DNA from: Eledone cirrhosa
Taxonomy: Eukaryota
Assembly: GCA_964016885.1 (NCBI GenBank)
Contig: OZ024741.1
Coordinates: forward strand, 156,984,001 to 157,048,000
Length of the DNA: 64,000 nucleotides
Direction: 5' to 3'
Shown here in pieces: positions 5,492 through 52,128 of the stretch (its first letter is position 1; each line of letters starts with the position of its first letter). The notes beneath the pieces were generated by a model that was not told where the DNA came from, searched no databases, and worked only from the letters and a program-made list of their open reading frames with translations. Position numbers and translations under genes: made by a program.

Positions 5492-5818
5492 CTTTCTCTT
5501 CTTCCTGTTGTCTTTCTTCTTCCTCTTCTTCTTCAGCTTCTTCTTCGGCTTCTTCCTCTTCTTCTTCCTCCTCTTCCAGCAGTCTATTCCGAAGTTTCTT
5601 TTCTTTGTCCAATTCCTGAAGCATCAATTGGAAATTCAGTGCTGCTTGCTGTTGTCTGTTTTCTTCGGCATTTAATGCTGCCAACTCCGATAACTCTTGT
5701 TGTTTTTTGGCATTTTCAAACCGGGCAAAGTCATTGGCTAGCATCTCCTCCTCTTCATCTTCATTATCAATGTCATCATCTGCATCATCAGCATCCTCTT
5801 CTTCTTCAACATTATCCC
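5492..5818 (-). CDS. Internal coding exon of secreted acidic granin/prohormone-like protein (Glu/Asp-rich, coiled-coil-like)
   Basis: Acceptor tatttttcag at 5821-5819, donor G|gtatgt at 5491; 327 nt, phase 1-1, open: DNVEEEEDADDADDDIDNEDEEEEMLANDFARFENAKKQQELSEL...EEEK; composition and phase match the upstream exons. Confidence 0.8.
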
Positions 5819-5986
5819 CTGAAAAATATAAATAAATAAATAAATAAACTGCCTATCTATCTAATGTTAAGGTTAATGTACATATATATATATATATATA
5901 TATATATATATATATATATATATATATATATATATACGTATATAGATATATATATATATACACATATGTATATACATATATATATA

Positions 5987-6174
5987 ACGAAAAAAGTGTG
6001 ATAAGGAACCAGATGGACCATAAGGCACCAGAGTACTCAATACTTAGGGTTGTAGAGTGGGTAATAGGAAAATGTTTAACCCCGACAGCAGAGCTCAAGC
6101 CGTTTCGATGGCTATTTCTTAAATAGCCGTCAAAACGGCTTGAGCTCTGCTATCGGGGTTAAACATTTTCCTAT
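5987..6174 (-). mobile_element. TA-embedded fold-back element, family 1 (hairpin 6064-6174 plus tail)
   Basis: About 54-bp inverted arms around ctt at 6118-6120; homologous to 62135-62317 and 19882-20018; (TA)n on both sides. Confidence 0.85.
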
Positions 6175-6429
6175 ATATACATATCTATATATATATATAT
6201 CAAGATTTAACATCCATTTTTTAATATGTTCGAGCACTTTACAGAGTGTACTGGGTGTGTTTTATTATGGCAACAGCACTAGGTTATGTCTTTGACACAA
6301 CAGAAGTATCCTCTCAACCATTTGTTTGGCAAGATTTCTATGGCTGGACTCCCTTCCAAACACCAAACACTTTACAGAGTACATACATACATGCATTAAT
6401 ACACTATATACATAGACCTTTGATGTGAG

Positions 6430-7660
6430 CAGTCACACATATGGCATGGGTGATTATTCATTACATTTAAGATGACTACTTTCTCCGATAGTAATGCCAC
6501 AACTATCAGCCATGTTGAATAATTGAATATTCTTCTAATTATACACACTGAAGATACTTTTTATTTAAAATCATAGATATCCATCTAAATACTAAATTCA
6601 CTTTACGAGGATTTGATACAGGTAGCATGGCTTAACACAACATCAATGTCAACAATACAGAATTTTTTTAGTTGTAGCTATATTTTTCTTGGAGTTACAA
6701 ACTTAGCAATTTATTTATAAAATGACAAAAATAGATTCCTCTGTTGGCTATATGAACAGACTGAAGCTATACTAGGACGAAATACATCCAGAACTAAATC
6801 ACTTTACAAGCAATGTACGTAGAATATAAAAACAACATAAACATTATTCAAAACATTAATGAAATTGTAAAACCTCTACACAGCGATACTGCAATGAACC
6901 CATTGATGAAAAATTACATGCAAAAAATTATGCATGGCTATGTTGCCAGGAAACTCCAGAATGAGAGTAATATAGATAAGGAAAGTAGTCTGTCTTGAAC
7001 CAATAACTACTATATTGGCTCTCACTCTGAAGGATATGCTTTTGCAATCCAAGAACAGGAAATCAATACAAAATACCTGATTCACAAAAGCGCTAGGGAT
7101 GCAGGAAAAACACATAGATGTGACAATATTGAAGATGTCACCTATATCATGGAGATATCTGTCCAAAGATGTCATCACGGAACTATCTACCTATGAGGTA
7201 TGATGTAGTGGCCAAAACAGTATATAATGCAATCCATAGAAAGGATAGTCCCAACAATAAACATATAAAAATTTACAGCAAGGTGGAAGACATATGCACA
7301 CGTAATATAAAAGAATACTGGTGGAATGTTCCAGTCAGATATCCAATAAAATGCAAACACAATAAACAATACATAGTGACAGAGAAATGCACAGTAGTGG
7401 AGGTCAGCTGTCCATCGGATGTTAATATAATGCTAAAGATCAGTGAAAAGGAGAACATTTATACAGAATTATGAGGAATTTGCAGATACTCTACCCTGAC
7501 TACACCTTTAAATGTGTAAATGTGATCATTGAGGCAAATCTTGAGAAACTGGGCTTCATAGAACCAGAAAGTGCACAGCTAGTTAAGAAGTTGCAAATAC
7601 AGTTCATTAATGGAACTGTAAAATTATGTAAAACATTTCAGAAATTCTGCATGTAATAAC
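6430..7660 (+). mobile_element. Degenerate R4/NeSL-like LINE 3' portion with restriction-like endonuclease
   Basis: Broken ORFs MHGYVARK, YLPMRYDVVAKTVY, EYWWNVPV, CTVVEVSCPSDVNI...EKENIYTEL resemble the REL domain region. Confidence 0.7.
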
Positions 7661-49002: not shown

Positions 49003-50244
49003 CTTTTCATTAAAAAAAGAAAGAAAGAAAAAAGAAAGGAATTAAATTAAATGAATTCAAAGGGGGAAAATGCAAATTCTAACTTGGAAGGCGAAAAAGA
49101 AAAAAGAAAAAGGGAACAGGAAATATTTCTAAGTTTGTTGTTGTTGCTATTTAGCTCAGGGTTATCCATGACTTAAAAGCCGAGGTCATCAGTGACTTGA
49201 AGCAAAAATAGGCCTTTTTGGCATAAGGCCAGCAACTTGGCTTAAAGGGAAATGTCATCATCATCGTCATCATTTTATATTAGCAATTTCGAGTGATGGA
49301 AAAATTGATCTTATCACCCCCAATACTTGACTGGTATTATATTTTATAGACCCCAGACAGAGGAAAGATAATGTTGATCATGGGAGCATTTGAACTTAGA
49401 ACCCAAAGAGCTGAAACAAATATCAAAAACCATTTTGCCTCATGCTCTAACAACTCTTCCCATGCACCACTCTGTAGACTACTGAATAATAATAACATAA
49501 GGTTTCTTTAGCAATCAGTTGCTAAGTGAAGCATTCTAAAAGTCTAAAGTCAGTCTTAAGCCAGAAGGTTCATTTGGCCAGTCCATCACAGGGTTAAACC
49601 CCCAGCTATTGCTGGTACTCATTTTCAGCTGAGAATACTGGAGCAATATGAAATGAAGTGTCCTGCTCAAGAACACAACTCACCATCCAGGAATTGAACC
49701 CACACCATTATGATCGCGGTGAAGAATTAATTAGCTTCAAATCAGTTCCTGATCTCAAGAGCTCAATATATTGTGTAAGATTCTGTCAATGTTAGTCATG
49801 ATAGAAATTTAGACACTACCTATGAAGTCAGAGATCCTAAGGCTTTTGATGAAAGATACAAGGTGTTTAGTGACTATGCTTAGTACCCCAATGACAATTG
49901 GCACAACTTCTGTCCCTACATAGTACTAATTTCTAATAGTACCTGCAAGGGCTACATACTTATTGATCTTTTCCATTTCCTTTTCAGCCACAATAGACTT
50001 GAGAGACTGCAATATCAATTAGAGTCCATTTTGGTGGGAGGGCCTTGTTTTTACAACAATATCAGGGTAGTTTTAATAATAATAATAATAGTAATAATAA
50101 TAATAATAATAATAGTATTAGTAGTAGTTTCAATATAATAGAAACAACAGTACTAAAACATACCTCTACACATATCCAAGGAACACAGAGCTATATTACA
50201 TCATGTAGTGATAGCATGTGATAAAAATAAGACTAATGATTATG

Positions 50245-50425
50245 ATAATTGTTTCTACTTTTGGCACAAGGCCAGCAATTACCCAGTGCATTACTGGTAC
50301 TTTATTTTATCGACCCCGTAAGGATGAAAGCCAAAGTTAACCTCGGCGGGATTTGAAGTCAGAATGGCAAGGGCCATAACTCTATGCGTCAAAGCATGGT
50401 GTCCAACCCTCTACAGATACTGCCA
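50245..50425 (-). mobile_element. SINE family A in the intron
   Basis: Reverse complement match; lies about 55 bp into the intron. Confidence 0.9.
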
Positions 50426-50480
50426 ATGATAATAATAACAATAATAATAACAATAATGATAATAAATGGAGTGTACCAAC

Positions 50481-51777
50481 CTATGTCTGGTGATGCTATT
50501 TGTTGGTTTTCAGCAGTAAAATCTAATGATTGCGTCTCTGTACTCTCATCATCATCATCATCATCTTCTTCTTCATCTTGTAATGAATCAGAAGCAGGTA
50601 TTAAATCTTCTGCAATGCTGGTCCGTGGCACCCATCGATTTCCAACAACAGCATCCTTTTCCATATACCTCTCATCTTTATTTTCATCTTGATCACCAAA
50701 GCTTTTGATATCAGCATTAACATTATCATCAGCAGCCTCATTCATGAACTGTTTTTGGAGACGCTGTAACCTGTCTAATTTTGCTAGATCACTTATGCTC
50801 ATTTCCATTAAATCGTTATTAGATGGATCATTAACAATTAGATTATCAGGTTGTTCTTTTTCCATTTGTCTACCAAGTTGTCTTTTTCGATAATTACTCT
50901 CTGCTGCTGAATCACTGTATCCATCTGACATAGCATTGTTTTGGATTAAATCTTGTAGCTCAGCTTGACTCAGGGCTGTTGTATCATCATCTGCATCTTC
51001 GAATTTTCCTCTCTTCCTGTCTTGTTTTTTAACAGCTGCTAAGTCATCCATACTATGTTGCTTTTCAAGTTTTTCATTTTGCAAATGACCAGCGAGTAAA
51101 ATCAATCTTTCTATTTCTTCTGGAGTTAAGTTGTTGAATGGAGATTCTACAGCATCAGAATTCTGTGGTGCTGGAGACTCTACAGTTTCAGAGTTCCATG
51201 GCTCCATGATATTATTATTCTGTTTGACCATTTTCTTGGCATATTTATTATAAAGTCTTTTGTAGTCTGATTCTGAACCAAGAGAAAACCTCTTCTTTTC
51301 TGCTAGTTCTTCTTCTTTTGCAGCTGAACGCTCAAGTAGATTCAAGCGCCTGTTACTGTCTCTTGAAAGTTCACCAGGGTCTCCAATCTCTCTCATCAAA
51401 CTTTCTACATCACTGGCTTCTTCTGGTCCATAATAAACCAAGTTTCTATTATTGGAAACTGCTTCATTCAAATTTCCAGCATCATCATCACCATCAGCAG
51501 CACCACCAACATCCTCATCATCAACCTCATTGTCAACTTCATCCTGGCTATCTATTATGACAGGCTGTTCTTGAAATTGTATCCCTTCCCGGGGGAGAGC
51601 CTCTTCGGCTGCATGGAGCTCAAAACGCCGCCTCTCACGCTCAAGTACACGCAAAGCTTCATGTAGGTCACTTGGGTTTTCAGACGGGTCAACAATGCTT
51701 CTTTTTCTCCAAGTCAAGCTCAGTGTTCCATACGCACATAGTGCTAACAGTAGGAGGGCTGTTTGAATGGGCCACAT
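50481..51777 (-). CDS. First coding exon of secreted acidic granin/neuropeptide-precursor-like protein
   Basis: ATG at 51777 after acceptor ttttgtttttcag (51795-51793); signal-peptide-like MWPIQTALLLLALCAYGTLS; 432 open codons rich in D/E with RKR, RRR, KKR and KR sites; donor G|gttggt at 50480 in phase with the next exon. Confidence 0.92.
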
Positions 51778-52128
51778 TTAGGATTGCATCAACTGAAAAA
51801 CAAAATGAAAAATAGCCATTCAGACAGAAGTTCATCATCCACTATTTTACATTTATTTTCCATGGTGGCATATATATGCTGGGTTGTCATGATCCAAGAT
51901 TTGACAGATCAGATAAACCTGCCTTGCTTGTATGTTCCAAAAATGATTTTAAAATGTTCACTGAGATATTTTTAGAATTTAAAAAACAAAGAAATGTAAT
52001 GGTTTAGTAAGAGAAGGAAGTTGATTGTTTTTTCAAGTTTGACACTTCTATCAATCTCTTTTTGCTAATCTTTGAGACATAGACAAATAATATATATATA
52101 TATATATAAATATATATATATATATATA

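Follow-up and report, generated by a model that had tools for sequence, protein, structure and literature searches.

A fliktin homologue of the octopus Eledone cirrhosa: a likely granin-like precursor with a pseudo-phospholipase A2 tail

What kind of secretory protein is encoded by the long gene on the minus strand of the 64,000-nucleotide stretch analyzed here (the window; G000:C2:156984001-157048000 of the 3.0-Gb genome of the octopus Eledone cirrhosa)? A first-pass annotation, made from the letters alone, had proposed an unrecognised granin-like or neuropeptide precursor to which no orthologue could be assigned. We found RefSeq orthologues as well as homology to insect fliktin (PaOGS36577), and these comparisons make the gene likely the cephalopod orthologue of fliktin. 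On sequence grounds, its C-terminal domain is a phospholipase A2 (PLA2) by ancestry and not by active site. We consider it fairly likely that this fliktin-homologous precursor with a pseudo-PLA2 tail works in a granin-like way as cargo in the dense-core granules of neurons and neuroendocrine cells.

Gene model and precursor protein

We aligned five orthologues to the window plus 100 kb on either side and mapped six coding exons for a protein of 848 amino acids (aa). The gene spans about 160 kb when a candidate 5' exon is counted. All exon borders are AG/GT, and the 2,547 joined nt make up 848 codons and one stop. The features are as follows, in window positions unless marked G000:C2.

51793..64000, minus strand: putative intron 1, window part (80,362 bp in total), leading to the candidate 5' non-coding exon beyond the window
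50481..51792, minus strand: coding exon 1, with 15 nt of untranslated region, ATG at 51777, 432 codons plus 1 nt and the acceptor at 51793; encodes the predicted signal peptide, a basic site (residues 24-26), the conserved helix of the N-terminus (residues 35-52 or thereabouts) and an acidic disordered region
48502..49002, minus strand: coding exon 2, 501 nt, phase 1-1; carries the conserved central block, predicted to form a helical hairpin
42901..43008, minus strand: coding exon 3, 108 nt, phase 1-1; placed by orthologue mapping and the X4 contig
5819..42900, minus strand: intron 3, 37,082 bp, with several copies of non-LTR (long terminal repeat) retrotransposons inside; skipped by the X4 contig
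5492..5818, minus strand: coding exon 4, 327 nt, phase 1-1; encodes a long helix rich in Glu that runs into the C-terminal domain
1..5491, minus strand: intron 4, window part (32,306 bp in total), leading to exons 5 and 6 beyond the window
G000:C2:156957185-156957073, minus strand: coding exon 5, 113 nt, beyond the window; PLA2-like His-Ala site at His776
G000:C2:156956164-156955964, minus strand: coding exon 6, 201 nt to the stop, beyond the window; Cys-Asp-x-x-Phe

The introns between the six coding exons measure 1,478, 5,493, 37,082, 32,306 and 908 bp. One contig from run X4, 2,594 nt long and with a depth of 43.8, follows exons 1-4 in order and without introns, its record placing exon 1 at 1386-2594, exon 2 at 781-1282, exon 3 at 672-780 and exon 4 at 438-672. 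Because this contig is spliced and the exons are also spanned by alignments of five cephalopod-type proteins, the join of exons 1-4 over the 37-kb intron is not due to chance; it is shown by one contig of one study. The remaining 345 nt of the contig, which end in a repeat, equal exon 5 (113 nt) and a further 232 nt for exon 6, and this length together with the orthologues points to a join of exon 4 with exons 5 and 6. In three other runs, all from the same study as X4, reads continue through the introns in a DNA-like manner.

The first-pass annotation had joined three phase-compatible exons (51777-50481, 49002-48502 and 5818-5492), and we recovered them with AG/GT borders, phase 1 and 708 codons jointly. 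Its join across a long intron is borne out by the spliced contig, but the intron size of about 43 kb is not, the exon at 43008-42901 having been missed. RefSeq isoform X2 of two Octopus species lacks exon 3 and isoform X3 lacks exon 2, and the earlier three-exon join corresponds to the X2 form of a relative.

A candidate 5' non-coding exon is suggested by a weak match (tblastn, E 0.004) to the N-terminus of the Octopus vulgaris model. The match ends at a GTAAGC donor following G000:C2:157116155, in a phase that suits the O. vulgaris model and 80,362 bp upstream. The N-terminus of that O. vulgaris protein (CAI9735823, P0005) is apparently wrong: the model takes in the non-coding exon upstream and the beginning of exon 1 in a different frame, and the signal peptide is lost.

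A single copy of the gene was found in the genome. Within intron 3 lies a non-LTR retrotransposon (21212-24329, plus strand), with an endonuclease frame (381 aa) followed by a second long frame (643 aa) for a reverse transcriptase and a PHD-like finger; shorter pieces resembling it occur at 3253-4047, 16295-16675 and 25093-26179. Two further broken non-LTR elements with pieces of reverse transcriptase are located at 255-1517 (plus strand) and 30679-32889 (minus strand). Upstream of exon 1, a long trinucleotide microsatellite at about 55680-55950 gives spurious matches to the poly-Glu region.

The encoded protein has the overall build that had been described. Its sole hydrophobic stretch is a signal peptide predicted by hydropathy (KD19 1.63 at the N-terminus, <=0.85 elsewhere), and residues 23-745 are very acidic (isoelectric point 4.23, 25.9% Asp+Glu). 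These residues contain no Cys, as was stated earlier for the part of the mature protein then visible, but the mature protein as a whole has 10 Cys, all in exons 5 and 6. Ten KR/RR sites precede the C-terminal domain, and the 848-aa model contains no Gly-dibasic amidation signal, in agreement with the earlier view that no repeated amidated peptide motif is seen. Hydropathy gave no membrane helix. An IA-2/PTPRN-type architecture, considered before the downstream exons were found, can be discarded: no transmembrane segment follows the signal peptide, no phosphatase is encoded, the reading frame stops in exon 6, and Pfam searches with window pieces and orthologues returned no significant match.

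Orthologues were identified in Octopus bimaculoides (XP_014779194, LOC106875521), O. sinensis, O. vulgaris and Argonauta hians, along with two clusters on transcript-sized contigs. The RefSeq entries of Octopus and Argonauta are uncharacterised proteins, and the nearest named proteins, those of Octopus, share 67-68% global identity. Conservation among five orthologues peaks at residues 26-50, 426-475 and 746-848, and conservation is strongest in the C-terminal domain (60-85 identical residues out of 103). For the O. bimaculoides protein, AlphaFold with an alignment of 55 rows predicted helical islands in a disordered chain, with pLDDT <50 for 337 of 787 residues. Two of the helices (399-434 and 438-464) align to hairpins, and the C-terminal domain was predicted with confidence (pLDDT 84-96 in blocks from residue 691) as three main helices.

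The four peptides quoted in the first-pass annotation lie on the minus strand where it had placed them (51699-51634, 51288-51262, 49000-48917 and 48739-48713). Of the three proposed as released products, the N-terminal one has basic flanks in all five orthologues, but the flanks of the second are not conserved and those of the third are kept only within Octopus.

Relation to insect fliktin and occurrence across bilaterians

A HMMER search of 1.84 billion representatives (E <= 0.001) with a profile of four cephalopod-type C-terminal domains matched 97 proteins. Word-indexed homologue searches gave only seven cephalopod-type proteins, and the wider family needed the full HMMER scan. Those listed are of three kinds: long acidic precursors with the domain at their end, short proteins of secreted type that consist of little besides the domain, and single-exon fragments; 15 matches appear to start or stop at an intron matching the border of exons 5 and 6. 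Ten long members were looked up and six could be named, from Hetaerina (damselfly), Darwinula (ostracod), Macrobrachium (prawn), Oppia (mite), Priapulus and Anneissia (crinoid). The long acidic body is retained in every named lineage. In the Atlas, a full-length member lies near a largely molluscan cluster of 61 members (0.94) and near two clusters of arthropod proteins (0.92), which we treat as a lead only.

Several database names in this set, namely PFC0760c, glutamic acid-rich, ABC transporter F4, IWS1 homolog and eIF5B (P0003, P0004, P0006, P0051, P0094 and P0107), appear to derive from low-complexity matches; they are misleading and hide one family, which is now corrected. In one long member (P0053) the PLA2-like domain is followed by a von Willebrand A domain, through either a real fusion or a merged gene model. 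Two short divergent matches (P0101 and P0102) and a mostly nematode Atlas cluster of 90 aa hint at a nematode member.

In a tree built from 70 domains over 113 columns, with a midpoint root for drawing only, 52 long members separated from 18 short ones at 100/99. The crinoid's group (98/92), the arthropod-like members (94/85) and the cephalopods (100/100) each fell on one side of a branch, and the priapulid adjoined the group holding the cephalopods. The group labels drew partly on names and partly on motif likeness and are thus not independent of the tree. The pattern fits a single inherited gene. Since homologues occur in cephalopods, a priapulid, crustaceans, a mite and a crinoid, the family is probably as old as the bilaterians.

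The similarity extends in part beyond the tail. The N-terminal helix motif was found in 33 of 46 long members compared with 1.2% of shuffles, and with profiles built from cephalopods alone, 13 of 42 long members for the N-terminal block and 25 of 42 for the central block scored higher than the 99th percentile of shuffles. When compared with an independently anchored arthropod block, the central block reached a HHalign score of 21.2 (P 0.0011; best of 100 column shuffles 14.8), at a probability of only 20.5%. It was not detected in the crinoid's group.

The tie to fliktin comes from insects. A neuropeptide-like precursor of Periplaneta, PaOGS36577 (Pea-NPLP), is homologous to ant fliktin and was found in four nervous-system preparations (FG, AL, RCC and TermG, which include ganglia, antennal lobe and retrocerebral complex) of two beetles, with six and five peptides of the precursor identified by mass spectrometry (MS), none of them amidated (PMC9552230). 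Fliktin is also present in the cockroach brain and retrocerebral complex, and its peptides were read as possibly hormonal (PMC12604039). For the stink-bug homologue, supplementary data give a mean of 67 in the head compared with 3.4 in the gut and 0.8 in the salivary gland (PMC10570428). A termite preprint merely lists fliktin (10.1101/2023.02.05.527168).

Fliktin and the octopus protein have in common a signal peptide, an N-terminal L-x-x-A-L helix before basic residues, an acidic body with dibasic sites, a central helical block ahead of the last acidic stretch and a C-terminal 10-Cys domain with a His that is not followed by Asp. The Cys spacing of this domain is 8,17,5,2,10,11,5,24,3 in the octopus and 6,17,5,2,11,11,5,25,3 in the beetle (by eye). 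The damselfly protein P0094 links the two: it matches the domain profile (E 5.7e-5), has a Cys spacing of 9,17,5,2,11,11,5,32,4 and bears the internal hallmark motifs of the beetle precursors (by eye). The helix with its basic residues follows the signal peptide in the octopus and, by eye, in the beetle and stink-bug N-termini; the regular expression for L-x-x-A-L missed P0094 itself. The insect products are non-amidated, and the octopus model likewise has no amidation signal. The octopus protein differs in being longer than the beetle ones, in the poly-Glu before the domain, in its skippable exons and in its peptide sequences. A W-S-x-Y-F-G motif before a basic cluster occurs in beetle, bug, damselfly and ostracod members and is missing in the prawn and mite members; we read it as a mark of part of the arthropod branch and not of the whole family. 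A neuropeptide-like precursor of Carausius, tried as a relative, was ruled out as a repeat peptide precursor.

The papers listed for fliktin, PaOGS36577 or the Carausius precursor all concern insects or a cleavage-prediction tool. We found no paper tying fliktin to molluscs, deuterostomes or PLA2, although there may be an earlier notice, since the original fliktin reports (Zeng 2021, Habenstein 2021) and the paper on conodipine-P lie outside our coverage. No paper turned up for LOC106875521, for three peptide motifs or for three accessions, and the combination of granin and cephalopod gave nothing relevant. Exact-term searches of supplements to scallop, sea cucumber and abalone neuropeptide papers (PMC5996578, PMC6586643 and PMC6523705) yielded nothing relevant, a weak negative because matching was exact and one file was covered in part. 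The covered portions of PMC12027567, PMC11876637, PMC11811501 and preprint 10.1101/2021.03.03.433790 held nothing on a fliktin-type family.

The phospholipase A2-like tail

The domains of the long and the short family members align with each other over 92 columns (HHalign 99.4%, E 1.2e-21). As the short set was gathered with the cephalopod profile, this comparison is not fully independent; the links of the short set to PF09056 and 8k1w are independent. Several short members exceed the PF09056 cut-off, and one of them or their like, P0092, gives a match to bacterial and fungal PLA2s of solved structure (8k1w, E 1.2e-10). The short members are conodipine-like in being short, Cys-rich and equipped with His-Asp, and they presumably match the conodipine sequence. 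With such short His-Asp PLA2s (conodipine group IX; the bacterial and fungal PF09056 proteins 8k1w, 4aup and 1faz) the octopus tail has in common the Cys frame, the His, a Tyr, the Cys-Asp-x-x-Phe helix and a predicted three-helix core. It differs in lacking the calcium-binding Asp and loop, and in sitting after about 745 mostly acidic residues instead of a signal peptide. Conodipine-M, a PLA2 that depends on Ca, forms a separate group (PMC4278219).

With these queries, the E. cirrhosa genome gave no match to PF09056 or to the short protein P0097. It does contain a group XII secreted PLA2 gene (PLA2G12, L024/L025; G000:C26:6890146-6891407, minus strand) with intact His-Asp, which is a separate gene.

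Octopods are venomous and the nearest enzyme-type relatives of the tail are short conodipine-like PLA2s, which would suit a salivary venom component related to conodipines. We hold this to be very improbable given that the gene, found as a single copy, is conserved and occurs in non-venomous lineages, and that expression of the stink-bug homologue is lowest in the salivary gland.

Active-site residues were tallied in 53 long and 18 short members; the gene model, P0003 and P0009 were added and P0108 was shifted by hand from the long to the short set. Left out of the 97 were 15 proteins that lack the His motif (two of them unrelated proteins, the others single-exon fragments), 12 short non-His-Asp fragments (including P0028, P0043, P0056 and P0082), the His-Asp fragment P0109 and the isoform P0006. 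The His and the second Asp (Cys-Asp-x-x-Phe) are each kept in 52 of the 53 long members. Asp directly after the His is present in 18/18 short members but only 1/53 long ones, and the Asp/Asn-Gly-Cys loop in 18/18 and 2/53, respectively. The position after the His is occupied in the long members by Glu (28), Gln (16), Ala (3), Lys (2) and Leu, Asn, His or Asp (1 each). Octopods have Ala there; beetles have His followed by Gln, with the second Asp also replaced (by eye). The sole long member with His-Asp, P0079, is nested among His-Glu members of the arthropod-like group and is possibly a reversion.

A viper group II PLA2 loses both Ca binding and catalysis when the equivalent Asp is replaced (PMC12650257). 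By this analogy, which crosses PLA2 groups, the C-terminal domain is predicted to neither bind calcium nor hydrolyze lipids. The retained His and second Asp may be structural; for the loop and the second Asp we assume the functional roles commonly assigned to them in PLA2. Retention of both residues nearly throughout, along with the His-Asp of P0079, could also be explained if the acidic pro-region restrained a calcium-independent phospholipase or other hydrolase until cleavage. With the calcium-binding Asp and the loop gone in nearly all long members, Ala in the octopods and the second Asp replaced in beetles, we regard such an active or latent lipase as improbable.

Survival of a PLA2 scaffold after loss of the calcium-binding Asp is also seen in Lys49-type viper PLA2 homologues and in otoconin-90, an acidic protein with inactive PLA2 domains. 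These belong to other PLA2 groups, represent independent losses and have no prohormone body. A very acidic protein with a signal peptide and a pseudo-PLA2 domain could, in the manner of otoconin-90, be an extracellular matrix or biomineral protein, for example of statoliths or shell. Insects and a mite have homologues but no such minerals, and in insects the processing takes place in nervous tissue; we think this role quite improbable, marginally more so than the lipase.

A proposed granin-like granule cargo and its alternatives

The octopus precursor shows granin-like features: a signal peptide, acidity, dibasic sites and a mostly disordered chain. It has these in common with vertebrate granins (chromogranins, secretogranin II/III and VGF), which are secreted, acidic and largely disordered with helical islands and dibasic sites. 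It differs from them in having no Pfam granin match and in its PLA2-like tail; we know of no granin with such a tail. No Pfam granin or secretogranin match was obtained for three window pieces and two orthologues at E 1, for 61 proteins at E 0.01 or for 11 proteins and N-terminal pieces at E 10, nor was one among the 25 of 42 families listed in another scan. The protein would resemble a granin in its working but fails the granin profile. The granin-like profile first proposed is useful as a working likeness, with prohormone-type processing indicated by the MS peptides of beetles and the head enrichment in the stink bug, but not as membership among the chromogranins or secretogranins. SCG3 was reported as vertebrate-restricted by BLAST (PMC1215479).

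We propose that the predicted signal peptide takes the precursor into the secretory pathway, and we infer secretion by the regulated route in cephalopod neurons. Judging from its composition, the acidic, mostly disordered body would condense with calcium at granule pH and co-pack peptide cargo. The conservation of the N-terminal helix and the central hairpin suggests that they may act as sorting or self-association elements. Convertases, as shown for the beetle homologues, would cleave the basic sites in the octopus protein and release non-amidated peptides. The disulfide-bonded tail is predicted to be a pseudo-enzyme that binds the granule membrane or a receptor and does not hydrolyze lipids.

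Because acidity, helical blocks and the folded tail are conserved while cleavage sites and peptides are poorly so, the pattern argues for a structural, granin-like role over that of a classic transmitter precursor, although the protein may still have a hormone role. The protein could instead be a plain neurohormone precursor, with the N-terminal helical peptide and/or the disulfide-bonded C-terminal domain as signals, the acidic body as a spacer and no part in building granules. This would agree with the basic flanks of the N-terminal peptide in all five orthologues, with the strong conservation of the C-terminal domain and with the occurrence of fliktin peptides, possibly hormonal, in neurohaemal tissue. 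The MS-confirmed beetle peptides, however, come from the variable middle and not from the three shared blocks (by eye), a KR/RR site lies <=40 residues before the domain in only 18/53 long members, and a long acidic body is retained in every named lineage. We therefore rate the neurohormone precursor as unlikely, if well short of negligible.

Several points weigh against the granin-like cargo as proposed. Neural presence and cleavage are known in insects only, the X4 run is without a library record and all four runs are from one study; for every species covered, the granule-matrix role is something we infer. Most basic sites and predicted peptides are not kept even within cephalopods, and all seven members of the crinoid's group carry only 0-3 KR/RR sites. 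The comparison with beetles was made by eye, the formal link being P0094 at only E 5.7e-5, and the arthropod W-S-x-Y-F-G motif is absent from the 848-aa model. Second-round block profiles, trained without the held-out members, beat the best shuffle for the central block in 3/12 arthropod-like and 0/5 deuterostome-like held-out members, and for the N-terminal block in 2/12 (one at a non-terminal place) and 0/5. As to the tail, residual or altered chemistry may persist, with the His and second Asp kept almost throughout and Glu the commonest replacement. Fold searches with the domain model, itself of low confidence (pLDDT 52), stayed below significance: Foldseek placed PLA2s at ranks 1, 2, 5 and 13 (best E 1.2), and the comparison with VIA gave Z 5.9, rmsd 3.8 and 75 aligned residues at rank 26. 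Results for the full-length model were filled by helical hairpins, and sequence searches of the PDB with the domain or the family profile gave chance or coiled-coil matches only.

A bolder extension would make the family the ancestral bilaterian granin: a single-copy granule-matrix protein with a co-opted, calcium-blind PLA2 fold as membrane or sorting anchor, the counterpart of the chromogranins in invertebrates and, by loss of the tail, the source of a vertebrate secretogranin. The N-terminal helix of the crinoid-group members recalls what we take to be the N-terminal sorting helix of secretogranin II. We regard this extension as speculative and somewhat less probable still than the neurohormone precursor.

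In the literature covered, fliktin has so far been an orphan neuropeptide-like precursor of insects with no function given. Our results extend the fliktin family over the bilaterians and identify its conserved tail as a pseudo-PLA2. Invertebrates seem to lack chromogranins, and the fliktin family would offer an apparently single-copy candidate for what fills their dense-core granules.

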